From: Verrucomicrobiota bacterium | GTDB taxonomy: Bacteria > Verrucomicrobiota > Verrucomicrobiia > Limisphaerales > Palsa-1400 | Direction: 5' to 3' | Assembly: GCA_050014435.1 (NCBI GenBank) | Contig: JBEKDI010000006.1 | Coordinates: 9,205-73,204, forward strand | Length of the DNA: 64,000 nt | In this document: positions 9,808-63,354 of the stretch, one piece after another | Layout of the letters: each line of letters opens with the position of its first letter | How positions within the stretch are numbered: position 1 is the stretch's first letter | The notes under the pieces: generated by a model | What the model was told of the DNA's origin: nothing | Databases searched by the model: none | Seen by the model: only the letters and a program-made list of their open reading frames with translations | Translations under genes and position numbers: made by a program

Positions 9808-11289
<1,482 letters not shown>

Positions 11290-40115: not shown

Positions 40116-40128
40116 CAATAAATGCTCG

Positions 40129-43602: not shown

Positions 43603-43744
43603 GACAAGGCACGCCCTACCCCTGCCGGGAGGCAGGTTCTCATGGCCGCGAATCGGTCGCGGTGGAGGCGCGGAACGGCTTCGCAGTATGTATCGCTCAT
43701 GGCCGCAAACGCGGCATGGCCACGGTCATGATCTGGTTCAATGC

Positions 43745-44012: not shown

Positions 44013-44057
44013 GGGCGTCAATTAATTTCCCGGTTCAAATTCAAATAACTCCATTTT

Positions 44058-47671: not shown

Positions 47672-47760
47672 GTTTTCCTTTGGTTTTGTTGGTTGATAAA
47701 GCTTCTGCGCCCAACTTAAACCAATGGGTATGACAAAGACTGTCACACACTAAATAAACA

Positions 47761-47916
47761 CGGGAGTATGTATTTAACGCAAATCAGGTCAAAAGCGGCG
47801 ACTGGCTTTAACTGGCTATCCCTTTTGCGGGGGGCATCCATCAACACGATTGCCCGTTTTCAAAAAACAAACTTTTTTGCAGACATCGTCCAATTTGCGT
47901 TATCTACATACTCCCG
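47761..47916. mobile_element. 156-bp MITE-like element with 24-bp terminal inverted repeats and an 8-bp target-site duplication
   Basis: IR-L CGGGAGTATGTATTTAACGCAAAT (47761-47784) matches the reverse complement of 47893-47916 at 22 of 24 positions. AATAAACA directly abuts both ends (47753-47760 and 47917-47924). Confidence 0.55.
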
Positions 47917-47958
47917 AATAAACACGAAAATATGTTTTGGAAGCTAAGGAAAGGTCGG

Positions 47959-48951
47959 CTAGGTCTTGTAGCGGTTCAGCAAATTTTTAGCCGTTTCGCG
48001 CAACCGTTCGGCAAGCGCCTCCGGGCGGATTACGGTGGCGTGTTTGCCCCAGCTTAAGACCCAGCGTTCGGCTTCCTCAATGCTATTTAATCGCAAACGC
48101 AAGCGGAGTTGGCGTCTGGGCAACTCGATAATTTCCTGGCTGGCGTGCCATTTCCGCCCACGGACAAGGTCCGCCGCCCAGGAATCAAATTCCACCACGA
48201 TTTCATAATCGTCCTCACCCTTGAAAACGCTAAAACTACCCTTCAAGTATTCGTTCAGGTTGAATTTTTTGGGGATTGTGAAACGTTCGGTCGTGATTTC
48301 AGGGGATTTCAATCGCACAAGGGCAAATGTGCGCATCGCCTGGCGCTTCACGTCAAAAGCGAACAGATACCAGTGATTGTCCACGCAACCCAGGTGATAC
48401 GGATGCACCAACCGCCCTTGCGCCTTATCTGTGTCCAAGTTCCTGTATTGGAATTTCAACACCCGCCGTTCCTTCAAAGCCCGGGTCAGTATCTCAAAAG
48501 TTTCTAAATCGTTATCCTCCGGCGCAAAGGGTCGGAAAGATAACGCCTCATCCAAATTACCAATCAAATATCTTGCAGAGGAATCCAACTGGCCGGTCAA
48601 TCTGCGGAAAGCCAGTGCTAATGGGTGTTCAAACGGTGTGCCCCGGTATTGGGCAACAGCTTTGTGCGCCACCAGCAGGGCGAAAATCTCCGCTTCGGTG
48701 AACGGCAGTTGTGGGAATTGTTCCACCATTTCCGTGTAATAATAGCCGTTGCGCTGGCTGTCGAATTCAATGGGCAGGTTCAGGCGGTCCCTCATAAAAT
48801 CCATGTCCCGCATAATGGTGCGCAGGGAAACCTCAAATTCGTTGGCCAATTTGGAACAATTGGGAAACGACTCCTCTTTGATAAGGTTGTGAAAGCGCAT
48901 CATCCGCTCCCATGGCGGACGGCTGAATGCCTTGTTTTGAATTTTGGCCAT
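47959..48951 (-). CDS. HTH-WYL-WCX transcriptional regulator (BrxR/CapW/PafBC-like architecture)
   Basis: N-terminal wHTH (NCSKLANEFEVSLRTIMRDMDFMR). The WYL domain contains VHPYHLGCVDNHWYLFAFD. A C-terminal extension follows. ATG at 48951. Confidence 0.9.
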   Translation of the reverse strand: MAKIQNKAFSRPPWERMMRFHNLIKEESFPNCSKLANEFEVSLRTIMRDMDFMRDRLNLPIEFDSQRNGYYYTEMVEQFPQLPFTEAEIFALLVAHKAVAQYRGTPFEHPLALAFRRLTGQLDSSARYLIGNLDEALSFRPFAPEDNDLETFEILTRALKERRVLKFQYRNLDTDKAQGRLVHPYHLGCVDNHWYLFAFDVKRQAMRTFALVRLKSPEITTERFTIPKKFNLNEYLKGSFSVFKGEDDYEIVVEFDSWAADLVRGRKWHASQEIIELPRRQLRLRLRLNSIEEAERWVLSWGKHATVIRPEALAERLRETAKNLLNRYKT

Positions 48952-49156
48952 ATTTCTTTTTGCACCCTCTGACACCACATGTCAAACCCTTCCTGCCTGG
49001 TGCTCTAAAAAAGAATTTCCACCTGTGACCGTATTTGTCATACCCCCGCCGATAATCTGCCCGAATGAATATTAAATTGTCCCTCGATAATCCGATGGTG
49101 TCGCATTTCGCCCAAAGTTGCGATTTGTCGTTACCTTCACGTCCTTAAAATTATTT

Positions 49157-49468
49157 ATGAATAAAATACTGATTGGAACCAACGAACATAAATTCTGCGA
49201 TGTGAGCGAATCTTGGATACACCATCATGTCCATGAGCGGCATGCTGAAGGTCAACCAGTGTGCGCACAAGTCATCTTAAAAACTCATTCCGTGGATATG
49301 GCGCTTTCTACCCCGCACTGCACTCGCGGGCACGGCGGCGGGCGGCGTCCCAACCAAAAAGAAGAAGAAATCCTCAAGATTTGGGAGAACGAACACCTCA
49401 ATGACCCTGCTTGGACGGCAGGTAATTTGATTGCTTTCGTCAAACGGGTGCGTCACTTGGTTTGCTAG
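49157..49468 (+). CDS. hypothetical His/Cys-rich small protein (first gene of the chaperone-recBCD operon)
   Basis: A 103-aa ORF from ATG 49157: MNKILIGTNEHKFCDVSESWIHHHVHERHAEGQPVC...HC.RGH. It is AT-rich. No family recognised. Confidence 0.5.
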   Translation: MNKILIGTNEHKFCDVSESWIHHHVHERHAEGQPVCAQVILKTHSVDMALSTPHCTRGHGGGRRPNQKEEEILKIWENEHLNDPAWTAGNLIAFVKRVRHLVC

Positions 49469-50589
49469 GGTGGGTCCTGATGAGGGTAAAAATCCATTTC
49501 ATTATCCGATTTAGTTTTTCGTGCGCAACTTTCAGGCAAATCTACCCCAATCCCATGAAGATAGGACTATTCCAAGGTGTCAATAGTTGCTGCGTGGCGA
49601 ACCAAGACTGTCTGCAAAAGCAAGCCGACATCTCTAAACCGGTTAATCAACAGCCCAATCTCCTTCTGGAACCAAGTCCGGCCGAGGCGGACCACATGGC
49701 CATGCAATCAGCCTTGGCGAATTACAAAAAGAGGGTGGCAGAGCAGCCCGATTCTGCATGGGCTTGGTATCAATACGGCGATGCGTTGCTGGGGTTGAAA
49801 CGGCCGGAGGAAGCCGTCCCCGCCTTGCGGAGGGCGGTTGAACTTTCCCCGGAGACCACACTGTTTCATTATGATCTTGGGTTGGCGTTGTATGACTTGA
49901 ATCAATCCGAGGCCGCCAGTGAAGAATTTGCCGGGATTGTGGCCACCGATCCCAAACTCAAATGCGCCTGGTCGAGTCTGATGCTGGCCGCCATGACCAA
50001 TCTGGCGTTGAGCCAGGAAAAGTTGGGCCTACGCGATGAGGCCATTCAAACATTGTTGCCGGCACTAGATACCGCCGTGGGGATTTTGTTCAACCTTGGG
50101 TTTCTGCATTTTCGCGCCAAGCGGTTTGATGCCGCGCTGCCTTATGCGCACGCGGCCTACGTCCTGAAACCCAACAACGAGGACATCGTTCATCAATACG
50201 GAACGATATTGATGGAAGTAAAGCGGCTGCGAGAAGCGGTGAAAATCCTGAAGCTGGCGACCGAGTTGAACCCTGAATGTGCCGCAGCATGGTATGACCT
50301 CGGACTGGCGCACGCCCGGCAGAAACACCGAGAAAAGGCGCGCTGCTGTTTTCTGCAATCGCTGGAAATTGAGCCGAGGCGAGCATGGTCCTATTACGAT
50401 CTAGCCTGCCTGGACGCGCTGGAGGGGAAACGAGAGGCGGCTTTTGAGCATCTGATGCGGGCAGTGGTGTGCGGATTCAAGGACGTCGGGTATCTGCTGA
50501 AGGATACCGATTTCCGGTTATTGCGGCGGGATGCGCGGTGGAAAAAATTGATCCAGCACATCCGTGATTTGGAATATGCCAACAATTAA
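49462..50589 (+). CDS. TPR repeat protein
   Basis: At least six TPR units (AWAWYQYGDALLGLKRPEEAVPALRRAVELSP; LFHYDLGLALYDLNQSEAASEEF; AAWYDLGLAHARQKHREKARCCFLQSLEIEP). The start is uncertain (TTG 49462, ATG 49480 or 49555). Confidence 0.75.
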   Translation: MLGWVLMRVKIHFIIRFSFSCATFRQIYPNPMKIGLFQGVNSCCVANQDCLQKQADISKPVNQQPNLLLEPSPAEADHMAMQSALANYKKRVAEQPDSAWAWYQYGDALLGLKRPEEAVPALRRAVELSPETTLFHYDLGLALYDLNQSEAASEEFAGIVATDPKLKCAWSSLMLAAMTNLALSQEKLGLRDEAIQTLLPALDTAVGILFNLGFLHFRAKRFDAALPYAHAAYVLKPNNEDIVHQYGTILMEVKRLREAVKILKLATELNPECAAAWYDLGLAHARQKHREKARCCFLQSLEIEPRRAWSYYDLACLDALEGKREAAFEHLMRAVVCGFKDVGYLLKDTDFRLLRRDARWKKLIQHIRDLEYANN

Positions 50590-50594
50590 AAGGA

Positions 50595-52988
50595 ATGATT
50601 ATGAATGGTGCAGATTACTGTTTCGGAATTGACCTCGGCACGTCCAATTCGTCTATCTGTTACGTCAACCCCAAAGGACGGCACCGTCTTCCCTACGTCC
50701 ATGTCGAAGCGGCAAAAATCCCGCGAGACGAAGCGGGTGAATATTCGCATCGCCTCCCGTCCGTTCTTTTCGCCACCGGTAAAATCGTGTCCGCAGGCTT
50801 TGAAGCCCAATCGAAGTGGAAGAAGGGTCGCCTGTGGGAAACCCTGTTTCCGTCGGCTAAATCGGAACTGGGCGCGCATCGGTTTTATGACGAGGCGGTC
50901 AACGAGAAATTGGACACACCGGTCAAAGTGCAGGCGGAGATTTTACGGCGGCTGATTGCCTCCGCCAAAGAACGCACCGGTGAAGATCCCCGCAAATCAA
51001 AGGTTGTCATCACTGTGCCCGCATCTTTTGAAATGGGCCAACGCAAGGACACTTTGGAGGCGGCGAAATTGGCGGGGTTGAATTTGGGCGACGGCGACCT
51101 CCTCGACGAGCCGAATGCTGCATTTCTGGATCTGGTCAACAGTCAAGCCATCGACCGGTTGGATTTATCGGCTCCCAAAAACATTCTGGTCTTCGATTTC
51201 GGCGGCGGGACCTGCGACATCTCGATCCTCCGGGTTCAACGCGATGACAAAAATGCACCGTTGGCATTGCTCATCGAAAATTTGGCGATCAGCAACTACG
51301 CGAGGCTCGGCGGTGATAATCTGGATCTGCTGTTGGTTCACAAAATTCTGCTGCCGAGAGTGTGCCGAGAGAGTGGTGTGGTGTTTGAAAGTCTTTCGGA
51401 GCGTGACAAACGCGATTTGCGATGGAACTTAAAGGAGACCGCCTGTCGCCTGAAAGAGCGGCTTTGCGAAAAGGCCATCAGCGAGCGGGAAAAAATCAAG
51501 TTCGCGAACCCCAAGCAAACGTGGACGGCGGAGGCGTTCGGGCTGTCTGACGCTGGCGTCAGCACGAAGAAAATCAAAGGAGAGCTTGCCTATTTTGAAT
51601 TTGAAAATCTGATGACGCCGTTCTTGGGCTTGTTGACCGGCAGCCAGATCACGCTAGCGGACGGTTACTACATGGGTTCAATTTTCGCTCCGGTGCTGGA
51701 GTCGCTCGACAAAGCGAGATTAAACCCTGACCAGATTGACGCGGTGCTTCTCAATGGCGGGAGTTGCCGAAATCCACTCGTGGTCCGCGCCTTTCGTGAA
51801 TTGGACATCTTTCGGAATGCGGAGATTCTCGAAAAAGGCGATCTTGACCTCGCAGTGGCTCGTGGTGCCGCCGTGCGCTGTTTCTTCAAACACTATCAGA
51901 ACTACGATCCAATCACACCCATCGTGAGTGCTGAACTTGGGGTCATCACACACGGCGAGAATCATGAAATGCTGGTGTCAGCCGGAACCCGGTTGCCGTT
52001 TCCTCCCAATGATGAGTTCAAGACATTCACCGACCGATTTTGGGTTCCCAAGGAGAAAATGGCGAAGATTCACCTGCCAATATATTCCGGCAAGGACGGA
52101 AACAGGCAACTGGTTCAAACGATGTCCCTGGAAGTGCCCAAGGAAGCCATGCGCGGCGACCGGGTGGTAGTTGAACTGAAAATCGACTTGAACAAGATCA
52201 TGCGTTTTCGCGCCTTTCTGGCAGAACACCCGAAAGTGGCGTTGGATGTGACACTGGAAAATCCGCTCGCAATGCGCAGCCTATCGGTAGAACAACGGGA
52301 GGCGCTTGAGGAACGAAAACGGATTTCAGGCAAGCGGCTTGAAAATCCTCTCTATCGGCCATCGGTTGCAGAGTTGGTTCGACTTGCCAATCTGGAACGG
52401 CTGGCCGACGAACCGGAACGGGCACTGGAAATTCTCCAACGGCTCCAGGGGCGACTAAAGAAACAAAATGAAACGCTGCCAGCGTCGGGTCACAACATTT
52501 TGGGATTGAGTTACGGGATGCTGGGGCGGCGGAATTTAAGTTTTGAACATCATCGCCAAGCGTCGGAAATGGAGCCAAATAATAGCACCTACACCGCCAA
52601 TTGTGGTTATGAACTGACGCAAATGGGAAAAGCGGAAGATGCCATTCCGTTTTTGAGACGAGCCATCTCTGCCGAACCGGCAGATGGATACGCATACGTC
52701 GTCTTGGGCGATGCGCTTCGCCAGTTGGGGCGCGAGGAGGAAGCGTTGAAAGAGTTTCAAGAGGGAAAACGACGGTTTGAAATTAAATTGCGGACATTTC
52801 CCAATAGCACGCACATGCTCAGTTGGGCTGAAGGCGCTTGCCGTCGCCTCAGTGAATATGAAGACGCGGCGGCCTTCAGCCGTCGCAGAAATGAATCTGA
52901 ACGCACCGCCTATCTTGGCGCTTCATCGGATGAGCTTGTCGCTGGCATGGACAGTGGCATCATTCGGTCCGGAGAACTCTCCGCCTGA
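50595..52988 (+). CDS. divergent Hsp70 (DnaK-like NBD + SBD-beta) with a C-terminal TPR domain replacing the lid
   Basis: The actin-fold motifs occur in order: GIDLGTSNS, DEPNAAF, VFDFGGGTCDIS, LNGGSCRNP. A beta-sandwich-like segment follows (ITPIVSAELGVITHGENHEMLV...VVVELKIDLNKIMRFRAF). The last ~250 aa are TPR (NILGLSYGMLGRRNLSFEHHRQASEMEPN..., YAYVVLGDALRQLGREEEALKEF). Confidence 0.85.
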   Translation: MIMNGADYCFGIDLGTSNSSICYVNPKGRHRLPYVHVEAAKIPRDEAGEYSHRLPSVLFATGKIVSAGFEAQSKWKKGRLWETLFPSAKSELGAHRFYDEAVNEKLDTPVKVQAEILRRLIASAKERTGEDPRKSKVVITVPASFEMGQRKDTLEAAKLAGLNLGDGDLLDEPNAAFLDLVNSQAIDRLDLSAPKNILVFDFGGGTCDISILRVQRDDKNAPLALLIENLAISNYARLGGDNLDLLLVHKILLPRVCRESGVVFESLSERDKRDLRWNLKETACRLKERLCEKAISEREKIKFANPKQTWTAEAFGLSDAGVSTKKIKGELAYFEFENLMTPFLGLLTGSQITLADGYYMGSIFAPVLESLDKARLNPDQIDAVLLNGGSCRNPLVVRAFRELDIFRNAEILEKGDLDLAVARGAAVRCFFKHYQNYDPITPIVSAELGVITHGENHEMLVSAGTRLPFPPNDEFKTFTDRFWVPKEKMAKIHLPIYSGKDGNRQLVQTMSLEVPKEAMRGDRVVVELKIDLNKIMRFRAFLAEHPKVALDVTLENPLAMRSLSVEQREALEERKRISGKRLENPLYRPSVAELVRLANLERLADEPERALEILQRLQGRLKKQNETLPASGHNILGLSYGMLGRRNLSFEHHRQASEMEPNNSTYTANCGYELTQMGKAEDAIPFLRRAISAEPADGYAYVVLGDALRQLGREEEALKEFQEGKRRFEIKLRTFPNSTHMLSWAEGACRRLSEYEDAAAFSRRRNESERTAYLGASSDELVAGMDSGIIRSGELSA

Positions 52989-53002
52989 CCGTCTCCGTCA
53001 AA

Positions 53003-53521
53003 ATGAAGAAAAAAAATCAATCAATTCGTAACCGGCGGAAAAAAGTGAGCCAACCAAAGGCGAGCCGTCCCAGACGTCCGCGCCGGGTGCATCTGGCCAT
53101 ACGCAAACTGCTCGACACCACCAATCATATTCAGGCGCGGGCGGCGGAATTGGAAAATGCCCTTGATGAATTGCGTGAGCAGGAGAGGATCAAAGCAGTG
53201 AAAGATTTATTGCTCGCGCTCCGAAACAGCGCCAACGGTGATTTGTTGCGGTTTGATTCAACCGTGCCGGTCGAGAATGACCGCACGCGAGCAATTGTCG
53301 ATGCGGTTAGCGAGGCATTTTCCATCGTGCCGTTGCACCAGATTGGGGAGCGAATTCCGGTTCGTGACGGAAAAATTCCTGACAGCTTGGAACTGGATCG
53401 TTCCATCGGCGAAGAAGTCGGGAAATGTGTTGCGGCTGAAATTGTGTCCGTCGGCTGGAAGTTCAAGGAACAAACGATCATCAAGCCCGTGGTTCGGCCT
53501 TTGTTCCGGGCATCCTCGTGA
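53003..53521 (+). CDS. GrpE-like putative nucleotide-exchange factor (weak assignment)
   Basis: A basic N-terminus is followed by a coiled-coil (ARAAELENALDELREQERIKAVKDLL). A C-terminal segment IVPLHQIGERIPVRDGKIP......VAAEIVSVGWKFKEQTIIKPVVRP parallels the GrpE pattern (G.PFDP..H.A......V..V.QKGY...GR.LRPA.V). The gene is solid; the function is inferred. Confidence 0.45.
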   Translation: MKKKNQSIRNRRKKVSQPKASRPRRPRRVHLAIRKLLDTTNHIQARAAELENALDELREQERIKAVKDLLLALRNSANGDLLRFDSTVPVENDRTRAIVDAVSEAFSIVPLHQIGERIPVRDGKIPDSLELDRSIGEEVGKCVAAEIVSVGWKFKEQTIIKPVVRPLFRASS

Positions 53522-56500
53522 CGCAACAGATGATTGAATTGCCAATGTCAAACTTGAGATTATACACTAGCAACCGGCTGGAGAACTTGGCGGAAGGCCT
53601 GGCCGAGGGCGTCCGTCGTCCGCTCCGTTCTCCGCTCGAACCGGAAACCATTCTGGTGCAAAGCCAGGGCATGGCCCGCTGGCTCAAGCTTCAACTGGCC
53701 CGGCACCACGGCATTTGCAGCAACTGCCAGTTTCCGTTCCCGCGCGCCTTCAGCTACGAGGCCTTCAAGACAGTGCTGGGCGACCTGCCGGCGGAGGAGA
53801 CCTACAACCCCGAGGTGTTGATCTGGCAGGTCATGAAGCAGATGCCGGGGTTTCTGGAACAGCCCGGGTTTGAAGCCGTGAAAAACTATCTGGGAACAGA
53901 ACATGACGACCGGAAGCTTTATCAACTGGCAGACCGTATCGCCAACGCGTTCGACCAGTATCTGGTTTTCCGGCCCGAAATGATCCGGCAATGGGAAGCC
54001 GGAGCCGACCAGGATTGGCAGGCGAAATTGTGGCGCGAGGTCAGTGTCCCGTTTCGTAATCAACATCCGGCCGCGTTGCAATCCAGACTCATCCAGCAAT
54101 TGGAACAGACCGGCGATCCAATTGCGGGCTTGCCGGAACGGGTCGCCATTTTCGGCGTCTCGGCGCTTCCGCCGTTTTACCTTCGCATTTTTGCGGCGTT
54201 GTCCCGCCACGTTGAGGTCAGCCTCTACCTCCTGCAACCCTGCGAACAATTCTGGGGCTATATCAGTTCCGTGCGCGAGCAGGAGAAAACCCTGAAACGC
54301 GCCGGCAAAGGTGCCGCCGAGGCAGACCAACTGCACTTGGAGCGAGGCAATCGTTTGCTTGCCTCAATGGGGCAACTGGGCAGGGATTTCCTTTTGGTTC
54401 TGCAAGAAGCCGGCGACTGGCACGAATCGGAGCCGTCGCGGTTTGAAGCCACCGGCCAGGAACACCTCCTTTCCTGCATCCAAACCGACATTTTGAATTT
54501 GGAAGACAGCCTGACCGGTGAAAGCGCCAAGAAAGTTATTACGGCCAAAGACGATTCCGTCCAAGTCCACTCGTGCCACAGCCCACTGCGGGAATTGGAA
54601 GTGCTTTACGACCATCTGTTGGACTGGTTCGAGCGCGACCCCAATCTTGCGCCGCGTGACATTTTGGTGATGATCCCGGACATCGAGTTGTATGCGCCCT
54701 ATATCCAGGCGGTATTCGGTTCCCCCGAACAGGATTCGTTTCGCATCCCCTTCAGTGTTGCCGACCGGACGGCACGGACGCAGAGCCACCTGATTGACAC
54801 CTTCCTGTTCTTGCTAAACCTCTCGGACTCGCGTCTCGGTGCCAGCCAAGTGCTCACGTTGCTGGAATCCGAGCCCGTCCGCCGGAAGTTCGAGCTGGAC
54901 GAAGACGACTTGGAACTGGCGCGGCACTGGGTTGAAGAGGTTCGCATCCGATGGGGGCAGGACGGAGAACAGCGGGCCGGTCTGGGCCTGCCCTCATGGT
55001 CCGAAAACACCTGGCGACATGGCATGGAGCGGTTGCTTTTGGGCTACGCCATGTCCGGAAATGGAGAGCAACTTTTTGAAAAAATCCTCCCCTACGATGA
55101 TATCGAGGGCAACCCGAGTGAAGTTTTAGGCCGCATGGCGGAATTTATTGAACGCCTCTTTACCGCCCTTGGGTCCCTCAAGACGGCACGGCCGCTGAAT
55201 GAATGGGCGGCAACTTTCCATTCCATCTTGGAAAATCTTTTTGAAACCAGCGAAGAGGAGGCCCAGGAGTTGCAGGTTCTCAACGCCTGTTTTGAAAAAC
55301 TCGCAGCAGCGGTGGAACGCGCGGGCTTTAATCAACCGGTTGGACTGGCAGTCGTGCTTGAACAGTTGAATCGTGATTTGTCGGAGGATTACTTCGGTTC
55401 GGGTTATCTGACCGGGGGCGTCACTTTCTGCGCTTTGAAGCCGATGCGGAGCATACCGGACAAGGTGATTTGCCTGCTGGGAATGAATGATCGTTCCTTC
55501 CCGCGCACCTCCCCGCAGTTGAGCTTTGATCTCATGGCCCTAAAGCCCCAACTGGGCGACCGCTCCAGCCGGGCGGACGACCGCTACCTGTTTCTCGAAA
55601 CGCTCATCTCGGCCCGCGACCGGATTTATATCAGCTATGTCGGCCAGTCGATTAAAGACAATAGCGAAGCGCCACCATCCGTGCTGGTTAGCGAACTGTT
55701 CGATTATGTGGCCCAACGATTTGAGCTTCCCGGCAAAGACATCGTTGAGGATCACATCTTGACCCGGCACCGTTTGCAGGCTTTCAGCACCGCCTATTTC
55801 AAAGGCGGAAGTTTATTCAGCTACTCGCGGGAGAATCTCAAGGCCAGTCAGGTCATCGCGCCGGAACGTAAGACACCCGGTGATTTTATTCCCAAGCCGC
55901 TGGCCAGTCCCGAATCGGAATGGCAGCGACTGAGCATCCAGACGCTGGCGGGGTTCTTTTGCAACCCGTCAAAATTTCTGGCGGAGAAACGTTTGGGTCT
56001 GAAATTGCCAGATGGTGCAGCGGCATTGGATGAACGCGAGGCGTTCGATATCGCGGGATTGGACCGCTATCAACTCCAGCAGGAACTGCTGGAATTGAAG
56101 TTGGGAGGCATGAGCTTGAAGGACTCATGCGAACTGGTCAGAGCTTCCGGGCGGCTGCCTGCTGGTATTTCCGGCAGTGTCCATTTTGCGCAAGTTCGCC
56201 GGGATGTTGAAGTTTTCAGCAAACGGTTGCTGCCATTCAATCCCGGCAGTTTTCAAACTCCGGTGCCATTCGAGCTGACCATCAACAATTTCGTGTTGAG
56301 TGGCAATATCAGCCACGCAACACCCGATGGGGGATTGCTCTTCTACCGCCTTGCTAACGTTAAGCCAAAAGACCTTTTGCGGGCTTGGGTTGAGCATATT
56401 GTTTATCACGCTACTCGCGCTGAGGGCGAGACGGCAGAAACCGTTATCGTAGGCACCGAATCCATCTGGAAAATCGCGCCCATTTCAGAACCACTGCCCG

Positions 56501-56817
56501 TGCTCGAAAAATTGCTCACAAATTATTGGGCCGGTCTGTCCGAGCCGTTGAAATTCTTTCCGGAAAGTTCGTTTGCTTTTGCGGAGGCGGATTACAAGGC
56601 ACAAACCGGCACACAAGGCAAAACATCCAAAAACCCGATCGACTTTGCTTTGGAAAAGTGGAACGGGAACGACTTCTTTGGGTCGCCCGGGGAATGTCTG
56701 GACGAATATGTTTCCTTGTTCTTCAAAACCGAAGACGCGCTGGCCGGAGATTTTGAACCCCGCGCCAGGGACGTGTTTCAACCGCTCTTGGAAAATTCTG
56801 AGGAGGTCAAAGAATGA
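53518..56817 (+). CDS. recC: exodeoxyribonuclease V gamma subunit
   Basis: About 1090 aa. The N-terminus MSNLRLYTSNRLENLAEGL is typical of RecC (ATG at 53545; a GTG at 53518 overlaps the upstream stop). It is followed by recB and recD with ATGA overlaps. Confidence 0.9.
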   Translation: MTQQMIELPMSNLRLYTSNRLENLAEGLAEGVRRPLRSPLEPETILVQSQGMARWLKLQLARHHGICSNCQFPFPRAFSYEAFKTVLGDLPAEETYNPEVLIWQVMKQMPGFLEQPGFEAVKNYLGTEHDDRKLYQLADRIANAFDQYLVFRPEMIRQWEAGADQDWQAKLWREVSVPFRNQHPAALQSRLIQQLEQTGDPIAGLPERVAIFGVSALPPFYLRIFAALSRHVEVSLYLLQPCEQFWGYISSVREQEKTLKRAGKGAAEADQLHLERGNRLLASMGQLGRDFLLVLQEAGDWHESEPSRFEATGQEHLLSCIQTDILNLEDSLTGESAKKVITAKDDSVQVHSCHSPLRELEVLYDHLLDWFERDPNLAPRDILVMIPDIELYAPYIQAVFGSPEQDSFRIPFSVADRTARTQSHLIDTFLFLLNLSDSRLGASQVLTLLESEPVRRKFELDEDDLELARHWVEEVRIRWGQDGEQRAGLGLPSWSENTWRHGMERLLLGYAMSGNGEQLFEKILPYDDIEGNPSEVLGRMAEFIERLFTALGSLKTARPLNEWAATFHSILENLFETSEEEAQELQVLNACFEKLAAAVERAGFNQPVGLAVVLEQLNRDLSEDYFGSGYLTGGVTFCALKPMRSIPDKVICLLGMNDRSFPRTSPQLSFDLMALKPQLGDRSSRADDRYLFLETLISARDRIYISYVGQSIKDNSEAPPSVLVSELFDYVAQRFELPGKDIVEDHILTRHRLQAFSTAYFKGGSLFSYSRENLKASQVIAPERKTPGDFIPKPLASPESEWQRLSIQTLAGFFCNPSKFLAEKRLGLKLPDGAAALDEREAFDIAGLDRYQLQQELLELKLGGMSLKDSCELVRASGRLPAGISGSVHFAQVRRDVEVFSKRLLPFNPGSFQTPVPFELTINNFVLSGNISHATPDGGLLFYRLANVKPKDLLRAWVEHIVYHATRAEGETAETVIVGTESIWKIAPISEPLPVLEKLLTNYWAGLSEPLKFFPESSFAFAEADYKAQTGTQGKTSKNPIDFALEKWNGNDFFGSPGECLDEYVSLFFKTEDALAGDFEPRARDVFQPLLENSEEVKE

Positions 56818-59800
56818 ATGCGCCATCTCCATTCATTCTGACGGAGACACCTTTGACCCGTGGCGTCAGCCTCATCGAGGCCAGTGCCGGCACCGGCAAA
56901 ACCTACGCCATCACGGCCCTGTTTGTGCGGCTGATCGTGGAGGAAAACCTTTCGGTGCGAGAGATTCTTGCAGTCACCTACACGGAGGCGGCGACCGAAG
57001 AACTGCGCCACCGCGTGCGTCAGGCGTTGGTCAACGCCTTGCAAGCCTTTACTTCCGACGAAAGCGGAGTCCCATTTCTCAAGGCACTCGTTGCCAGATT
57101 CCGGGAACAATCCGCAGAGATGGTGGCGCGTCTGCAAAATGCCCTTTGCGATTTCGACGAGGCGCCGATCTACACGATTCATGGTTTCTGTCAGCGGACG
57201 CTCCGGGATCGGGCCTTCGAGAGCGGCTTGCTCTTCGACACCGAGTTGGTCACGGACCCATCGGAGTTTTTACAGGAGATCGCCGACGACTTCTGGCGCA
57301 AACGGTTTTACGAGGCCGGGCCGACCCTGGTAAATTTTGCGCTCAAGAACAAATTCGGCCCGGAACATTTTCTTAACCTGCTGCGAACCTGCAACAATTA
57401 CCCGCACATCGAATTCTTGTCGCAAGCCAAAGGCCACACGTTTGATTCGCTTTCGGCGGAACTGGAGAGCCGCTTTCTGTCCGCTCGTAAAGCGTGGCTC
57501 TCGGACGCAGACAAGATTAAGGCCTGCTTCGGTTCGACCATCAAATGGGGGAACAAACCTTACAACGATGACGAAGCAATGGCTTATCTATTCGACCAGC
57601 TCGACACCTGCTTTTCCGAGAGCGATACGGCCTTCGAAGCCTTGTCGGCTCTGACCGATTTTTGCGTCAGCCAGTTGCAGGAAAAAAGAAACAAACGATC
57701 CAAGTCCCCGCCACCGATTCCATCGCATCCCTTTTTCGACCTGTGTGAGGCTGTATGCCGGGCGGAACAACTTTGGCTGGCCGGCATCCAACTCGCCTTC
57801 GTGGAATATGCAAAAACAGAGCTTCCGCGCCGGAAGACCGAACGCAAAATTCAATATTTTGATGACCTGCTGACGCGGCTGGATGCCACCCTTTCAGGGC
57901 CGGGCGGTGAATCTCTAGCCTCAAACATGCAAGCCCGCTACCGGGCCGCCTTGATTGATGAATTTCAGGACACCGACCCGGTTCAGTATTCAATTTTTCG
58001 TCAGGCTTTCTCGGGTGGAAACACCTTCCTCTTCCTGATTGGCGACCCCAAGCAGGCGATCTATGGATTCCGTGGGGCGGACATCTTCACCTACCTCGAA
58101 GCTTCTGGTCAGGCCACCAGCCGTTATACGCTTGGGGAAAATTGGCGCTCCGAGTCTGGTCTGGTCACGGCGGTGAATAAACTCTTCAGCGCATCGCCCA
58201 GCAGCTTTGTATTTGATCGCATCGGATTTCAGGAAGCCGTGCCCAAAGGCAACGCCAATGACGAACCGCTCACATTGGAGAACAAGAAGGAGCCGCCATT
58301 CCAACTCTGGTTCATGCGGCGCAATGGCTCGAAGGAAATTTCAAAAACTTCAGTGACAAAAATATTGCCGCAAGTTGTGGCCACCGAGATTGTCCGGTTG
58401 CTCAACGGCAACACGAAGATCGGCGAGTGCCGGCTCAAACCTGAAGACATCGCCGTGTTGGTGCTGACGAACCGGCAGGCTGCCAACGTTCAGGAGGCTT
58501 TGAGCGAATTCAAAATTCCGAGCGTGCTTCACACCACCGCCAGCTTGTTTGAATCCCATGAAGCGGCAGAACTTCACCGAGTTCTGGCCGGCATTGCTCT
58601 GCCGGGCGACGAGCGCCTCGTCAAGTCCGCCCTTGCCACCGATATCTTCGGCATGGATGGCTGCCAGTTGGCGGAATGTTCCGAGGCCCAATGGCACGAG
58701 TGGTTGTTGCTCTTTCACGAATACCTCGAAGTCTGGAACCGTCATGGCTTTTTCCGGATGTTCCGACTTTGCCTGCAACGGCAACAGGTGCGGCAGCGCC
58801 TGCTGGCCTTTCCCGATGGTGAACGCCGGCTCACCAACATTCTTCACCTCGGAGAGGTTCTGCATAATGCTGAAACCGAGCGACGGCTGGGCGTAACCGG
58901 CCTGCAAAAATGGCTGGCCGAACAAATGGGCCAGTCTGAGGAAGCCCCGGAGGACCACCAGTTGCGTTTGGAACGGGACGACAACGCCGTGCGTATCGTC
59001 ACCGTGCATAAAAGCAAAGGACTTGAGTATCCCGTGACCTTCTGCCTCTTTTCATGGAAGGATTCGGAAATAAAGCGAGGCTCCGAGGAACTGGTTTATT
59101 TTCATGACGCCGCGCAGGGAAACAAGCTGGTGCGCGACTTGGGCCCTGACATTGCCGACGAGCATCGGCAACAGGCCAAGCAGGAGCGTCTGGCCGAAAA
59201 CGTGCGCCTGCTATATGTTGCACTGACGCGGGCCAGTCACCGCTGCTATTTCACTTGGGGCGATGTCAAAGGGGCTGCAACTTCCGCACCCTCTTGGTTG
59301 CTCCACCGCCCACCGACCACAACCGGTCCGCTGCTGGAAACACTTGAAGCGCACTTCAAATCCTTGAGCGATGAATCCATGCTGAAGGACTTGATCCCGC
59401 TGGGGGAGAAGTCGAACGGTGCTCTTGCCGTCTCCGACCTGCCCGAGCCAGCGAAAGCCGTTTACAAACCTGAAAATGATGGCAGCGCAATCTTGGAATG
59501 CCGCCAGTTTAAGGGGCTCATCCGGCGGGATTGGGTCATCTCCAGTTTCACCTATTTCAAGGCGGGTTTGCACGAGGAACTTCCTGACCGCGATGCGGTC
59601 GCCGCTCCGGCAAAGGAAGAGGCTCCCGGAAAAGGGATGTTCGCTTTTCCAAGAGGAATGAAGGCCGGCACTTGCCTCCACGAAATTTTGGAGAAACTTG
59701 CTTTCAATGCCACCGGCGAAGACATGCTCAAGCTCGTCAATCAACGGTTGCCGGCACATGGTCTGGCCGGCCCGGGCCATTGCGAAGCGGTTCAGCAGAT

Positions 59801-60362
59801 GTTGGAGGCACTCGTCCAGTTTCCACTCGACCCTGGACAAAAGGATTTCACCCTGTCGAAGCTCAACGCCTCCGATCGGCTTAGTGAGCTTGAGTTCTAC
59901 TTCCCGATTCAGAACGTGTCGCCGGCTCGTTTGCAGGAATTACTTGGGAAACTGGGATGGTCATCGGCTGTGCCCGCGCAACTTGACCGACTGGCATTTG
60001 ACCCGATCCAGGGCTTCCTCAAGGGATTCATCGACCTCGTTTTTAGATTTGAGGATCGCTATTACCTCGTGGATTGGAAATCCAACTGGCTCGGCAATCG
60101 GATGGAGGATTACTCGCCCGAGGCCATCAAGGACGAAATGCGGCGGCAATATTATTTCGTCCAGTATCACCTCTACACTGTGGCCCTGCATAAATATCTG
60201 GCTTTGCGTGTTCCCGGCTACGACTACGAGCGACACTTCGGCGGGGTGATTTATCTTTTTCTGCGCGGGCTCGATCCTGCCCACCCGGAGCGCGGGGCGT
60301 ATCGAGATCGTCCATCGCGCAGCGCTGTCGAACAACTCTCAGCCTTGCTGGAGGGCAAATGA
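56814..60362 (+). CDS. recB: exodeoxyribonuclease V beta subunit (UvrD-type helicase + PD-(D/E)XK nuclease)
   Basis: IEASAGTGKTY Walker A, IDEFQDTD, VTVHKSKGLEYP. The C-terminal nuclease motif is GFIDLVFRFEDRYYLVDWKSN. Confidence 0.95.
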   Translation: MNAPSPFILTETPLTRGVSLIEASAGTGKTYAITALFVRLIVEENLSVREILAVTYTEAATEELRHRVRQALVNALQAFTSDESGVPFLKALVARFREQSAEMVARLQNALCDFDEAPIYTIHGFCQRTLRDRAFESGLLFDTELVTDPSEFLQEIADDFWRKRFYEAGPTLVNFALKNKFGPEHFLNLLRTCNNYPHIEFLSQAKGHTFDSLSAELESRFLSARKAWLSDADKIKACFGSTIKWGNKPYNDDEAMAYLFDQLDTCFSESDTAFEALSALTDFCVSQLQEKRNKRSKSPPPIPSHPFFDLCEAVCRAEQLWLAGIQLAFVEYAKTELPRRKTERKIQYFDDLLTRLDATLSGPGGESLASNMQARYRAALIDEFQDTDPVQYSIFRQAFSGGNTFLFLIGDPKQAIYGFRGADIFTYLEASGQATSRYTLGENWRSESGLVTAVNKLFSASPSSFVFDRIGFQEAVPKGNANDEPLTLENKKEPPFQLWFMRRNGSKEISKTSVTKILPQVVATEIVRLLNGNTKIGECRLKPEDIAVLVLTNRQAANVQEALSEFKIPSVLHTTASLFESHEAAELHRVLAGIALPGDERLVKSALATDIFGMDGCQLAECSEAQWHEWLLLFHEYLEVWNRHGFFRMFRLCLQRQQVRQRLLAFPDGERRLTNILHLGEVLHNAETERRLGVTGLQKWLAEQMGQSEEAPEDHQLRLERDDNAVRIVTVHKSKGLEYPVTFCLFSWKDSEIKRGSEELVYFHDAAQGNKLVRDLGPDIADEHRQQAKQERLAENVRLLYVALTRASHRCYFTWGDVKGAATSAPSWLLHRPPTTTGPLLETLEAHFKSLSDESMLKDLIPLGEKSNGALAVSDLPEPAKAVYKPENDGSAILECRQFKGLIRRDWVISSFTYFKAGLHEELPDRDAVAAPAKEEAPGKGMFAFPRGMKAGTCLHEILEKLAFNATGEDMLKLVNQRLPAHGLAGPGHCEAVQQMLEALVQFPLDPGQKDFTLSKLNASDRLSELEFYFPIQNVSPARLQELLGKLGWSSAVPAQLDRLAFDPIQGFLKGFIDLVFRFEDRYYLVDWKSNWLGNRMEDYSPEAIKDEMRRQYYFVQYHLYTVALHKYLALRVPGYDYERHFGGVIYLFLRGLDPAHPERGAYRDRPSRSAVEQLSALLEGK

Positions 60363-62224
60363 ACATCAATAAATTTCAACACTCACCACCAGCCGAAACC
60401 CTTACCCCCATCGACCGGCACTTTTCCGGCTTGATGGCTAGATTATCAGGCAATGTGCCCGAGGTGAAGCTGGCCGCTGCTCTGGTGAGCCACTATCGCC
60501 GGCTGGGAAACATCTGCGTGGACTTGGACGAATACAAAATCAAGCCACCGCCAGTGGAGATTGCCGTTGAACTGGGATTTGATGTCTGGCCTGACAAATC
60601 AATTTTGCTCAAGGGACTCAAAGGCTCTCCGGTCGTGGGCCGCCCCGGCGATTTTAAGCCGATGATTCTGGATGACCAAGGCCGACTTTATCTCCACCGC
60701 TACTGGAAGTATGAATCAGAACTTGCGGAATCCATTGGCCGACTGGCGAATGGAAACGCCCCAGCCGTGGGGCAGCAGGAACTCAAGAAAGACCTGATCA
60801 GGTTGTTTCCAAAAACAAATGGGGAGGAAATTGATTGGCAGTTGGTCGCCGCTTTTGCCGCCATGCGCCGGAGGCTGTGCATCATCTCCGGCGGGCCAGG
60901 CACGGGTAAAACCCGCACGGTGGTGGTTCTGTTGGCACTATTGCTCGAACATCACCCGACAATGAGGATTGCCATGGCCGCGCCGACTGGAAAAGCCGCC
61001 GCTCGCCTTCAGGAAGCGGTGAAAAACGCCAAGGCCACGCTGCCCTGCGAGCAGGCAACCAAAGACCGGCTACCAGCGGAGGCCAGCACGATTCACCGGC
61101 TGTTGGGTTCCATCCCGGATTCCGCCTATTTCCGTCACAATGGAGATAACCCGCTACCGTTCGATGCGGTCATCGTTGACGAAGCCAGCATGGTGGACTT
61201 GGCTTTGATGGCCAAATTGGTGGCGGCCATTCCGCTGTCGGGGCGACTCATTTTGTTGGGAGACAAAGACCAACTGGCTTCCGTCGAAGCCGGAGCGGTT
61301 CTCGCCGACCTTTGCAACGGCGGAGAACAGCGCCGGTTTTCTGAGCAGTTCAACAAAGAATTCAAAGCGCTCACCGGCCAGACACTGCCGTCCGAACTAT
61401 GCGCTGGCAACGCTTCAGAGCTGGCCGATTGTATTATTGAGCTGCGCAAGAATTATCGCTTCGGCGACCAAAGTGGCATTTATCGGCTGAGCCAAGCTGT
61501 TAATGAGGGGAATTCTGAAAATGCCTTCGCGGCGCTCCGGGACTCCGGCGGGGAGGCTAACGGCCAAATTTCTTGGAAAACGCTGCCGTTGCCGTCGGCA
61601 CTCAAGGGGGCTTTGAAACCGCATGTGCTTTCACGTTACAAGGATTACCTTCAGGCTGCGAACCCGGCTGAAGCTCTCAATGCCTTTGGACGGTTCCGCA
61701 TTCTCTGCGCCCTGCGGAATGGTCCCTATGGCGTGGAAAACTTAAACCGGTTGGTCGAAGAAATCCTGTCAGAGGCCGGACTGATCCATGCCGATGGGCA
61801 CTTTTATGCGGGCCGCCCGGTGATGGTCGTTCGCAATGATTACAACCTCAAACTTTTCAACGGCGATATCGGGTTCGTTCGGACTAACGAAACGAAGGAA
61901 CTTCGCGCGTGTTTTGCGGGACCAGAGCAAACCCTCCGCGAAGTCATGCCGCTGCGCCTGCCTGAACACGAAACGGCTTACGCCATGACCGTTCACAAAA
62001 GCCAGGGGTCGGAATTTGATAGGGTGTTGTTGATCCTGCCAAGGGAGGACAGTGCCGTGCTGACACGTGAACTGGTTTACACCGGGCTGACCCGGGCCAG
62101 CACCGGGGTCGAACTTTGGTCCGACCCGGAAATCTTCAAGACCGCTGTTCGCCGCAAAATCAGTCGCCGATCCGGTTTGCGGGAGGCGTTGTGGGCAGAC
62201 CAAGTAAAAAGAACTACAAAATAA
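60359..62224 (+). CDS. recD: exodeoxyribonuclease V alpha subunit
   Basis: ISGGPGTGKTRTV Walker A, VIVDEASMVD, YAMTVHKSQGSEFD, TGLTRA. Confidence 0.95.
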   Translation: MNINKFQHSPPAETLTPIDRHFSGLMARLSGNVPEVKLAAALVSHYRRLGNICVDLDEYKIKPPPVEIAVELGFDVWPDKSILLKGLKGSPVVGRPGDFKPMILDDQGRLYLHRYWKYESELAESIGRLANGNAPAVGQQELKKDLIRLFPKTNGEEIDWQLVAAFAAMRRRLCIISGGPGTGKTRTVVVLLALLLEHHPTMRIAMAAPTGKAAARLQEAVKNAKATLPCEQATKDRLPAEASTIHRLLGSIPDSAYFRHNGDNPLPFDAVIVDEASMVDLALMAKLVAAIPLSGRLILLGDKDQLASVEAGAVLADLCNGGEQRRFSEQFNKEFKALTGQTLPSELCAGNASELADCIIELRKNYRFGDQSGIYRLSQAVNEGNSENAFAALRDSGGEANGQISWKTLPLPSALKGALKPHVLSRYKDYLQAANPAEALNAFGRFRILCALRNGPYGVENLNRLVEEILSEAGLIHADGHFYAGRPVMVVRNDYNLKLFNGDIGFVRTNETKELRACFAGPEQTLREVMPLRLPEHETAYAMTVHKSQGSEFDRVLLILPREDSAVLTRELVYTGLTRASTGVELWSDPEIFKTAVRRKISRRSGLREALWADQVKRTTK

Positions 62225-62257
62225 AAAACGACCGCGCCGGGAATATTTTATTTTCAA

Positions 62258-62287
62258 AACCATTCGAGGTTCTCGAATGGTTATTTT
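62258..62287. terminator. bidirectional rho-independent terminator between convergent recD and the HIRAN gene
   Basis: AACCATTCGAG-GTT-CTCGAATGGTT is a perfect 11-bp stem. It is followed by ATTTTG on the + strand and by a T-rich run (TTTGAAAATAAAATA) on the - strand. Confidence 0.7.
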
Positions 62288-62700
62288 GAATGCAGAATAA
62301 AACAGACGATGCCAATGATGATCGCCATACAAATGCAAACCGGCAGGCAACCGCCCGACGGCTTCGCGGCGGATGGTGATTTTAAGGACGATATTCGTGG
62401 GGAGTGAAGCCAACGCTCGTCAAAAAGGACATGCGCGTCAAAACGAGCAGGCTTATGGGATACTGAAATCACAAATGCTTTAACGACTGCCCCACCATCA
62501 ATGATGGGAGCCAAGAGCATGGCGTCATCTCGACTCAGGTGTCCCAAACTGGTGCCGGACAGGGTCTGAACCCTGACAGCGTTTCGATCGTGAGGATTCG
62601 ATGGTTCGCGAACCAAAACCAAATCCATTCCCGGATGAACAGCGCCTACACCGGCATGGTAATGGCAACCCACTACTTTAACTGGTTGGGTGATGTCCAT
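62281..62700 (-). CDS. HIRAN-domain protein with C-terminal transmembrane anchor
   Basis: VVGCHYH......G..L.LVREPSNPHDRNAVRV is the HIRAN signature. The C-terminal CLPVCICMAIIIGIVCFIL is a TM helix. Confidence 0.7.
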   Translation of the reverse strand: MDITQPVKVVGCHYHAGVGAVHPGMDLVLVREPSNPHDRNAVRVQTLSGTSLGHLSRDDAMLLAPIIDGGAVVKAFVISVSHKPARFDAHVLFDERWLHSPRISSLKSPSAAKPSGGCLPVCICMAIIIGIVCFILHSK

Positions 62701-62703
62701 GAC

Positions 62704-63246
62704 TCAACGCGGCAGGATTATGCCTTGGAGCAAGAACTCCAACTTGAGAGCATTCTTTGTCTTGTTTCTGTGGTCGAGCTGGCTTAGTCGCAGGGCAATG
62801 TTAAGATTGTTTTCCCTGCGAATATAAAGGGTAGTAACTAAATCAGTGGCAATACCGTAGGCAGCCAAGCAAACTTCGCAGGCAATCTCGCCCTTGCAAA
62901 TTTTGTTTGGCGGAGTAACTATCACCAAACTGAGCTTCTCTAACGATGAATCACAATCGCAAACTGGAAACGGACTCTCGCTTATCATGTCTTCTGCGAA
63001 ATCGAATTCCACCTGGAGATTCGTGTCTTCTGTCGAGGCATGGGGTCCAGCTTGTCCAGTATAGGCGTCGCCATCTACCCAAAGACGAACTAGAATATCC
63101 CTCGAAAATGTATCTCCTGGCCGGAAACCGAGCGCTCGAATCTTGTGGGCTCCCGATTGACTGACCTGAAAGACCTTCACCTCACCGGCAATGCAGGTTT
63201 TGATATAATACCCGTTCTGATTTACATATTGGTAAAGAACAGGCAT
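62704..63246 (-). CDS. hypothetical 180-aa protein (Cys cluster CDCDSS...CKGEIACEVC)
   Basis: AT-richer ORF 3 nt upstream of the HIRAN gene and 108 nt downstream of the brxL-like gene. No family recognised. Confidence 0.55.
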   Translation of the reverse strand: MPVLYQYVNQNGYYIKTCIAGEVKVFQVSQSGAHKIRALGFRPGDTFSRDILVRLWVDGDAYTGQAGPHASTEDTNLQVEFDFAEDMISESPFPVCDCDSSLEKLSLVIVTPPNKICKGEIACEVCLAAYGIATDLVTTLYIRRENNLNIALRLSQLDHRNKTKNALKLEFLLQGIILPR

Positions 63247-63354
63247 AAACCGTCCCCCTCAGCAGACTGGCAGACTGCGACTAAACAACATATCTGGAGT
63301 CCGGCTATTATTTGTTTGAACCTCATGATTTGACGTGATTCGACAACAGACCTT

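Follow-up and report, generated by a model that had tools for sequence, protein, structure and literature searches.

Among the regulators that combine a winged helix-turn-helix (wHTH) with WYL and WCX domains, DriD of Caulobacter and PafBC of Actinobacteria act as activators of SOS-independent damage responses, and CapW and BrxR are their repressor counterparts, found beside defence operons. The WYL domains of DriD, PafBC and CapW have been shown to bind single-stranded DNA (ssDNA) (PMC10853764, PMC11804915, PMC11662680). DriD, which controls recA and recJ, recognises a palindrome with the consensus ATACGAC-N7-GTCGTAT, and in DriD homologues the gene's own site lies about 17 nucleotides (nt) upstream of the start codon (PMC10853764). 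CapW is activated by RecBCD products (PMC11662680). Specialised chaperones form a further group of described systems: Kaur, Burroughs, Iyer and Aravind (2020) reported MoxR-vWA (von Willebrand factor A) ternary systems and GAP1-N2 GTPase systems with Hsp70, GrpE, tetratricopeptide repeat (TPR) or DnaJ components (PMC7159879), and the type III McrBC-related systems of the CoCoNuT class encode CnuD proteins with Hsp70-like nucleotide-binding and substrate-binding domains (NBD and SBD) (PMC11090510). Here we describe a locus in a 64,000-nt stretch of DNA from a Verrucomicrobiota bacterium (GenBank assembly GCA_050014435.1, contig JBEKDI010000006.1, positions 9,205 to 73,204 of the forward strand; this whole stretch is referred to as the window) in which a wHTH-WYL-WCX regulator stands divergent from seven co-directional genes of the plus strand. 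The third and fourth of these encode an Hsp70-TPR fusion and a GrpE-like protein and the last three are recC, recB and recD. Taken singly, the parts belong to familiar types (RecBCD, the Hsp70 superfamily, the GrpE fold and the wHTH-WYL-WCX architecture); as a whole, the cassette is a variant of the specialised Hsp70 systems that has not been described. We regard it as rather likely that the locus consists of an autonomous, mobile, ssDNA-responsive chaperone cassette that was fused by a local rearrangement to a housekeeping recCBD operon.

The evidence for the housekeeping status of the operon comes from its relatives (homologous loci are referred to below by L numbers). The genes recC (53545-56817; TIGR01450, 996 bits, cut-off 583), recB (56814-60362; TIGR00609, 915 bits, cut-off 696, with UvrD helicase and PD-(D/E)XK domains) and recD (60359-62224; TIGR01447, 569 bits, cut-off 310) were each matched over the full length and above the NCBIfam equivalog cut-off. 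RecC orthologues form a graded series from 100% to 57% identity, and where RecC is 81%, 74% or 70% identical to that of the window the operon is a stand-alone recCBD, with an E2/E1/JAB gene, with cbb3 oxidase genes, or with a response regulator, HU and a tRNA upstream, respectively; neither ybjN nor the chaperone module lies beside recCBD in these three relatives. Upstream of recC a conserved leader was found that consists of CTTGAYC, a spacer of about 17-18 nt, CCAAYCT and then CCCTGAGCTGAYYATG (L112, 9940-10003, with equivalents in L114, L115, L084 and L099), and this element is probably the native promoter or leader of recC in the lineage. The window and L081, which belongs to a group of 90%-identical relatives, keep only the last 12 nt or so of this leader; CTTGAYC is missing and the 3' end of the GrpE-like gene stands in its place, with the rearrangement breakpoint 13-23 nt upstream of the recC start codon. 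Because the stand-alone relatives share a leader of which the window retains a remnant, the window recCBD can be regarded as the ordinary, vertically inherited operon of the lineage and not as an island paralogue. A first-pass annotation of this DNA had conceded that the genes might be the housekeeping recBCD, and the RecC series, the stand-alone relatives and the leader remnant all favour that caveat. With the native leader lost, recCBD is likely to be read through from the WYL-controlled promoter, and in this clade it is probably co-transcribed with the cassette. GC content at third codon positions was non-discriminating (recCBD 0.63-0.66, cassette 0.52-0.64, core genes 0.68-0.78).

The region upstream of recC is itself variable among these relatives. 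In L112 it holds a fused E2/E1/JAB (ubiquitin-like conjugation) cluster at 5434-9512, and in L115 recC is preceded at a distance of 150 nt by a tRNA-Gly(CCC) (9774-9847), and DruA and an IS66 element are found farther away. Such variable content fits an island hotspot beside recC.

The first-pass annotation had also proposed that the chaperone-like genes form a module dedicated to RecBCD, and this is not supported by the gene-neighbourhood comparison. The conserved unit is a two-gene pair encoding an Hsp70-TPR protein of about 800 residues and a GrpE-like protein of about 175 residues. The pair abuts recC only in the window and in the 90%-identical relatives (L081-83 and L094), to which the window shows 86% nucleotide identity over 12.5 kb. 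In seven lineages, with Hsp70-TPR identities from 84% to 38%, the pair has no recC within 10 kb, where such flank was recovered, and mostly occupies defence or mobile islands: it stands alone in L087/88 (76%), beside a CHAT-TPR protein and an integrase in L091/92 (64%), beside an integrase, IS1595 and a giant helicase-HNH protein in L089/90/111 (58%), beside Lamassu, a KAP NTPase and another WYL gene in L093 (38%, Nitrospirota), and beside other genes, without recCBD, in L116 (82%), L117 (84%) and L118-121. Since the pair occurs elsewhere and recCBD occurs alone in the relatives with 81%, 74% and 70% identical RecC, there is no conserved linkage beyond this clade. Most copies of the pair are without any WYL gene. 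Directly downstream of the pair an SNF2-NOV_C helicase and a DUF1156 methyltransferase are found in L084 (10001-22439), L116 (10001-22511) and L118 (1029-13795), followed in L118 by a DUF499 ATPase; the SNF2/DUF1156(/DUF499) trio is a recently described BREX-related (bacteriophage exclusion) system (PMC12839542).

A profile search of genome contigs with the Hsp70-TPR alignment was dominated by ordinary DnaK, and among the matches listed only L001-L004 and L006 aligned over most of Hsp70-TPR, all of them distant relatives. A metagenome search with six GrpE-like sequences gave 18 loci, few of them long. A tblastn search against plasmids returned generic TPR matches only for the C-terminal half of Hsp70-TPR and nothing for the GrpE-like protein. 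The distant Hsp70-TPR subfamily (25-31% identity) has an organisation of its own: it forms a tight operon with a compact UvrD-like superfamily 1 (SF1) helicase of 389-414 residues and is without a GrpE-like gene (L003, 9950-14919; L006, 2033-6959; L001, 5428-9107; L004, 9821-13524). Its hosts are Bacteroides caecigallinarum, a Gracilibacteria metagenome-assembled genome (MAG), Sulfotelmatobacter and a Verrucomicrobiota MAG. A third gene of about 450 codons without a family match is present in L003 and L006, and a differing open reading frame (ORF) in L001 and L004. No PADLOC model corresponds to this operon.

The Hsp70-TPR gene of the window (50601-52988, plus strand; Pfam HSP70, 103 bits) probably starts at 50601, as the identical database protein has 795 residues. 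The protein consists of an NBD and an SBD-beta followed, where the lid would be expected, by about 10 TPR-type helices and then by a conserved C-terminal tail; an alignment of 20 sequences shows no variation in the ATPase motifs GIDLGT, DEPxAA, DxGGGTxD and LGGD. Its AlphaFold2 model (mean predicted local distance difference test score, pLDDT, 87) gave full-length DnaK and BiP as the top Foldseek matches, with E-values down to 8e-29. The phosphate-1, phosphate-2 and adenosine motifs of the actin-like NBD and the modelled beta-sandwich SBD identify it as a genuine member of the Hsp70 superfamily. An assignment as a DnaK or HscA orthologue was rejected on NCBIfam equivalog scores far under the cut-off (HscA 117 bits, cut-off 708; DnaK 105 bits, cut-off 648). 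Searches with the protein revealed a large family of proteins of about 800 residues with the same architecture, the named members of which come from Nitrospirota, Phycisphaeraceae and Vicinamibacteria.

The gene that follows (53003-53521, plus strand) encodes a 172-residue putative nucleotide-exchange factor and lies directly downstream of Hsp70-TPR in all close and mid-distance relatives examined, of which the one with the lowest Hsp70-TPR identity (38%) is a Nitrospirota MAG. The AlphaFold2 model (pLDDT 78.7) begins with a disordered basic tail and continues with a helix of 50 residues, a second, short helix and a beta domain. In a Foldseek search of the PDB the first 11 ranks are all GrpE, from six organisms, with E-values from 9e-4 to 6e-2 and probabilities of 0.5-1.0; after rank 11 the E-value jumps to about 1, and TM-scores are modest (0.26-0.45). 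A GrpE fold is thus predicted with moderate confidence. No match to the protein was found in Pfam, NCBIfam (E<=0.01) or PADLOC, and a sequence profile search of the PDB returned no GrpE. The label GrpE-like given in the first-pass annotation is therefore apt for the fold and for the strict pairing with an Hsp70 gene, and does not extend to membership of the GrpE sequence family. The protein is a putative exchange factor of Hsp70-TPR, a function for which the gene pairing is the sole support. Its N-terminal tail (encoded by 53003-53090) comprises about 28 disordered, Lys/Arg-rich residues and is conserved as a family feature; such a tail might bind nucleic acid. As in the DnaK-DnaJ-GrpE, HscA/HscB and HscC-DjlB/DjlC systems there is thus a complete Hsp70 with NBD and SBD-beta, and a GrpE-fold partner is encoded adjacent. 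Unlike in those systems, a TPR array replaces or extends the lid, the cassette contains no J-domain gene (Pfam scan), the cassette is mobile and found in islands, and the GrpE-like protein is sequence-cryptic with a long basic tail.

The regulator (47959-48951, minus strand) scores 68.8 bits for WYL, 55.9 bits for WCX and 24.2 bits for HTH_11, the last slightly below the cut-off of 25. Its best PDB sequence matches are PafBC (6sj9, 1e-17), DriD (8tp8/7u02, about 1e-6) and CapW (7tb6, 5e-4). It begins at an ATG at 48951, 205 nt from the first gene of the array, in agreement with the spacing of about 200 bp given previously. Three 19-bp palindromes of the form TRTGAC-N7-GTCAYA occur in the window. 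One, a perfect match (TATGACAAAGACTGTCACA, 47729-47747), lies 79 nt upstream of a ybjN-like gene (PF10722; 47147-47650, minus strand; Pfam YbjN E 2.7e-8, 63% identical to YbjN of L081), with the same layout in L081, L084 and L099. A weaker one with two mismatches (TCTGACACCACATGTCAAA, 48968-48986) lies 17 nt upstream of the regulator's ATG, is a candidate autoregulation site and has a counterpart in L081 at 6341-6359. The third, a strong palindrome in the divergent promoter region (TGTGACCGTATTTGTCATA, 49024-49042), is 114 nt upstream of the first gene of the array and has counterparts before the first cassette gene in L081 (7580-7598), L084 (8760-8778) and L099 (6303-6321). Against an expectation of 0.17 matches for the 14-base pattern with <=2 mismatches, three were found in the window, a number reached in 0 of 100 shuffles. 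When sites were scored on a 12-base core with <=1 mismatch, for which about 0.35 are expected by chance per 64 kb, they held conserved positions in L081, L084 and L099; none was found in L114-L116 and L118, which were classed as cassette-free loci, and one stray site was found in L112, about 9.9 kb downstream of the recC start. No palindrome stands directly upstream of recC in any locus scanned. The palindromes, being beyond chance and conserved in position in three other loci, are predicted to be operators of the WYL protein, and the ybjN-like gene is probably a member of its regulon. The description of the operon as WYL-regulated is, in bioinformatic terms, well supported by the DriD-type palindrome in the divergent intergenic region and its conserved position in relatives.

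In having three domains and standing divergent from the operon that it would control, the regulator resembles DriD, PafBC, CapW and BrxR. The resemblance to DriD extends to the 6-N7-6 palindrome, the half-sites of which differ at one position (TAYGAC against TACGAC in DriD), and to the candidate autoregulatory site, which is 17 nt upstream of the regulator's own ATG as in DriD homologues (PMC10853764). By analogy with the published work on DriD, PafBC and CapW, the WYL domain of this regulator may be expected to bind ssDNA. Unlike in all four described cases, the predicted targets here are a specialised Hsp70 system, ybjN and recCBD, and not recA/recJ/didA, CBASS (the cyclic-oligonucleotide-based antiphage signalling system) or BREX.

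The seven-gene array of the first-pass annotation was recovered with the gene identities proposed there, all ORFs being present. The ATGA overlaps that it listed for recC/recB (56814-56817) and recB/recD (60359-60362) are real, and the sole strong hairpin is indeed found after recD: a terminator-like structure with an 11-bp stem and a T-rich tail (62258-62282, plus strand) was ranked top in 47.7-62.8 kb, and nothing comparable was seen between 52988 and 53545 or elsewhere inside the array. Junctions between genes are 5-23 nt across the array, with 8 or 86 nt for the first. The overlap claimed for that first junction (49462/49468) has to be given up, as it rests on a TTG start without homology support; the TPR orthologue (344 residues) aligns from the ATG at 49555, and a start there or at the alternative ATG at 49477 leaves a gap of 86 or 8 nt. 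At the other end of the cassette the ATG at 53545 is retained as the recC start because stand-alone recC homology begins exactly there, and the GTG at 53518 is discarded; the spacer between the GrpE-like gene and recC is consequently 23 nt (53522-53544), and this cassette/recC junction is the site of the rearrangement breakpoint. A sigma-70 promoter scan of the region gave results at chance level and was uninformative. Searches found no tRNA gene anywhere in the window, and 46-64 kb gave no match to Rfam.

The genes in front of the pair are variable. Gene 1 (49157-49468, plus strand) encodes a protein of 103 residues whose family, as yet uncharacterised, comprises 502 representative clusters at E<=1e-3 and has conserved W, C, GGGGGR and AFL motifs. 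The protein gave no match in Pfam or in a PDB profile search and was found in none of the other module loci; its slot is occupied by a 445-residue vWA protein in L081 (a 90% relative) and by ARPP-1 in L084 (82% relatives). Gene 2 (49555-50589, plus strand; Pfam TPR families) encodes a TPR protein of 344 residues that is 71% identical to the TPR protein of L081 and is limited to the window and the L081 clade. ARPP is already known to pair with WYL regulators, and not with an Hsp70 (PMC9503650).

How the cassette may have come to lie against recC is suggested by two further groups. In L084/85/86/102 and in L099 the genes for the WYL regulator, ARPP-1, Hsp70-TPR, the GrpE-like protein and a response regulator form a discrete 6.4-kb block, which is 89% identical in nucleotide sequence between L084 and L099 as against 69% for the flanking ybjN. 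In both groups the block is found 2-7 kb upstream of ybjN-recC and faces the other way, its transcription leading away from recC. RecC identity to the window RecC is 71% in L084 and only 45% in L099. L099 was considered as an independent host lineage, which would have made the linkage to recC recurrent. This was rejected because L099 carries, within 1-2300, a recC leader of the lineage's type together with the degenerate beginning of a recC gene (MRILRP...), some 170 nt upstream of its present recC; it appears that a foreign copy has taken the place of recC, and perhaps of recBCD, at this position in L099. As L099 retains the lineage-type leader, one ancestral co-location of cassette and recC suffices for all three groups. 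Inversion of the segment from ybjN to the cassette end in an L084-like ancestor would yield the order of the window, namely ybjN(-), WYL(-), gene 1, TPR, Hsp70-TPR, GrpE-like, recC. Alignment of the ybjN-recC spacer of L084 to the putative inversion ends of the window gave no significant match, so that the inversion is one that we infer. In L081 a full copy of an IS1595-family insertion sequence (6447-7565) lies between the WYL and vWA genes, and in the window a 156-bp miniature inverted-repeat transposable element (47761-47916), the 24-nt inverted repeats of which match the ends of the L081 element, is flanked by the 8-bp direct repeat AATAAACA, a target duplication (47753-47924 overall); on one side of this element stands the putative operator of ybjN and on the other the WYL gene with its 3' end. 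IS1595 elements are evidently active at this locus.

The first-pass annotation knew of no described system with this architecture, and none was found by us in PADLOC or the literature. With PADLOC v2 the cassette gave only generic WYL models and a marginal local match of the NBD to PDC-M61B (E 1.7e-4), and the small protein, vWA and ARPP-1 were without match; literature searches on Hsp70-based defence, ARPP-Hsp70 links and WYL-RecBCD operons gave no description of the cassette. It shares with the systems of Kaur et al. (PMC7159879) an NTP-driven chaperone with a peptide-binding co-factor (vWA in L081), TPRs, an Hsp70 with a GrpE-type factor, variable accessories and a location in islands. Unlike in those systems, the Hsp70 itself is TPR-fused, control is by a WYL regulator and there is no MoxR; neither a GAP1-N2/DO-type GTPase nor a tubulin domain was found in any cassette gene of the window or the relatives. 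The differences from CnuD are that there is no McrB/McrC partner, that the ATPase motifs are intact here and degenerate in CnuD, that the repeats are TPR and not HEAT, and that a GrpE-like partner is present. With retron Ec48 the only shared concept is that of a system monitoring RecBCD; the locus differs from it in having no reverse transcriptase domain (Pfam), no non-coding RNA (Rfam, 46-64 kb), no effector toxin and no conserved recBCD linkage.

Under the reading that we prefer, two units have to be distinguished. One would be a mobile cassette of about 6-7 kb, comprising the WYL regulator, the ybjN-like gene, a variable first gene (here the 103-residue protein with the TPR protein, elsewhere vWA with TPR, or ARPP-1) and the invariant Hsp70-TPR/GrpE-like pair; the other would be the vertically inherited recCBD operon of the lineage. 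By analogy with DriD, PafBC and CapW the regulator would bind the TRTGAC-N7-GTCAYA palindromes, and ssDNA arising from DNA damage or from degradation of linear DNA would be bound by the WYL domain and so switch the divergent operon and ybjN. Hsp70-TPR might then cycle on clients brought by the TPR array and the variable adaptor, and would be reset by the GrpE-like factor. The rearrangement would have brought the cassette's 3' end to a distance of 23 nt from the start codon of recC and removed the native upstream element; one inversion would explain the order. Read-through of recCBD from the WYL-controlled promoter would mean that ssDNA made by RecBCD leads to more RecBCD, a positive feedback. 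Judging from where the cassette is usually found, it may serve in responding to attack by phages or mobile elements, or to DNA damage. That the Hsp70-TPR/GrpE-like pair by itself constitutes a chaperone-based anti-phage system is a tentative proposal, which we judge somewhat unlikely.

Several observations weigh against this reading or limit it. The survey of the pair covers only about a dozen independent contexts, and the cassette with this WYL regulator lies within 10 kb of recC in all three of the WYL-bearing groups examined (window/L081, the L084 group and L099). The 23-nt fusion has been retained although the window and L081 differ by about 14% in nucleotide sequence, and selection for the cassette/recC linkage is possible. 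A promoter inside the GrpE-like gene may exist. Distant Hsp70-TPR genes are translationally coupled to UvrD-like SF1 helicases and in three lineages Hsp70-TPR lies upstream of SNF2 helicase systems, so that an affinity of Hsp70-TPR for helicase machines is conceivable. This last point has been developed into the alternative that Hsp70-TPR is a general accessory or loading factor for helicase-nuclease machines, with RecBCD having replaced the usual helicase partner in this clade. In four distant lineages (Acidobacteriota, Bacteroides, Verrucomicrobiota and Gracilibacteria) Hsp70-TPR overlaps or abuts the gene for the 389-414-residue UvrD-like helicase, and an SNF2/NOV_C helicase lies 200-300 nt downstream of the cassette in L084, L116 and L118. 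Against this, the SNF2/DUF1156/DUF499 trio is a self-contained, described system (PMC12839542) with gaps large enough for a promoter between it and the cassette, helicase neighbours have a high base rate because defence islands often contain helicases, L087, L089, L091, L093 and L117 are without an adjacent helicase, and the distant subfamily, being without the GrpE-like gene, would be a different system. We therefore hold a general helicase partnership to be decidedly improbable.

A dedicated RecBCD chaperone that assembles the enzyme, reactivates it after phage inhibitors, or guards it and triggers a response could draw on the tight seven-gene co-directional array, which has a 23-nt junction and is free of terminators up to the end of recD, on the coupling of expression that follows from loss of recC's own upstream element, on the retention of the arrangement in the 90% relatives, on the presence of the cassette near recC in L084 and L099 as well, and on the activation of CapW, a WYL regulator, by RecBCD products (PMC11662680). 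It has to contend with the seven lineages that have the pair without recC within 10 kb, with the nearest recCBD relatives, which are without the pair, with the transcription of the L084 and L099 cassettes away from recC and the movement of the cassette as a discrete block, and with adaptors that vary (vWA, ARPP-1, small protein), unlike what would be expected for a fixed client. It is a most improbable account. A physical link between cassette and RecBCD is given about as little credence, and there is scarcely a chance that a single ssDNA-induced transcript supplies RecBCD together with an Hsp70-TPR/GrpE-like machine that would assemble RecBCD, strip off Gam/gp5.9-type inhibitors or report the inhibition, with ssDNA feeding back through the WYL regulator. 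An SOS-independent damage regulon under a DriD/PafBC-like activator, in which Hsp70-TPR provides damage-induced proteostasis and the placement of recCBD has been selected, is unlikely, if less remote. Here recCBD would have come to stand behind WYL promoters by way of ybjN in L084 and L099 and by way of the cassette in the window. In favour of this, PafBC and DriD, both activators of repair genes, are the nearest sequence relatives of the regulator, a DriD-like site precedes ybjN, the gene directly before recC in L084 and L099, and recA and recJ are under DriD control (PMC10853764). However, L084 and L099 keep a separate recC element between ybjN and recC, so that the ybjN promoter may be dispensable for recC; the cassette is horizontally mobile and usually lies among defence systems and integrases; most copies of the pair are without a WYL gene; and recC is directly preceded by a palindrome in none of the loci scanned.

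In the surroundings of the locus within the window, the conjugative remnant upstream and BREX tail downstream noted in the first-pass annotation were both confirmed. The remnant of an integrated conjugative element (39155-47008) includes RadC, a TrwC relaxase (40129-42984, minus strand), a ParA-like ATPase and a TrwB/TraG-type coupling protein (45536-47008). Further upstream are a complete Gabija pair on the minus strand (36272-38865), consisting of GajA (37291-38865, 373 bits) and a short-form GajB (36272-37306, 170 bits, covering 1-354 of the 369-residue PADLOC model), and a gene for a HipA-type kinase toxin at 34728-35957. Downstream of recD, at 62281-63822 on the minus strand, are a HIRAN gene, a 180-residue ORF without match and a 155-residue ORF that matches only the last 154 positions of BrxL. 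An in-frame stop lies upstream of this C-terminal BrxL fragment; brxL may be disrupted, or may continue past the window in another frame. ARPP, which occupies the first cassette slot in relatives, has been reported to pair with HIRAN elsewhere (PMC9503650).

The idea of a dedicated RecBCD chaperone has been largely refuted by the comparative test and is not worth pursuing as it stood, although a Hsp70-TPR machine acting on RecBCD would, if real, represent a novel type of guard or repair system for RecBCD. Targeted follow-up is still warranted for the cassette, for its regulator and for the capture of recCBD by a new promoter. Hsp70-TPR and its cryptic GrpE-fold partner are a widespread pair, found from Verrucomicrobiota-like lineages to Nitrospirota among defence systems, and are candidates for a system that responds to phage or DNA damage by way of chaperones. 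The locus also provides a DriD-type WYL regulator with a recognisable operator outside Alphaproteobacteria and Actinobacteria, with a candidate regulon of ybjN, the cassette and, here, recCBD. Finally, it offers a natural case in which a housekeeping recCBD operon has lost its promoter-like element and now stands under a promoter that is probably ssDNA-responsive, which, if true, would place the expression of RecBCD under positive feedback.

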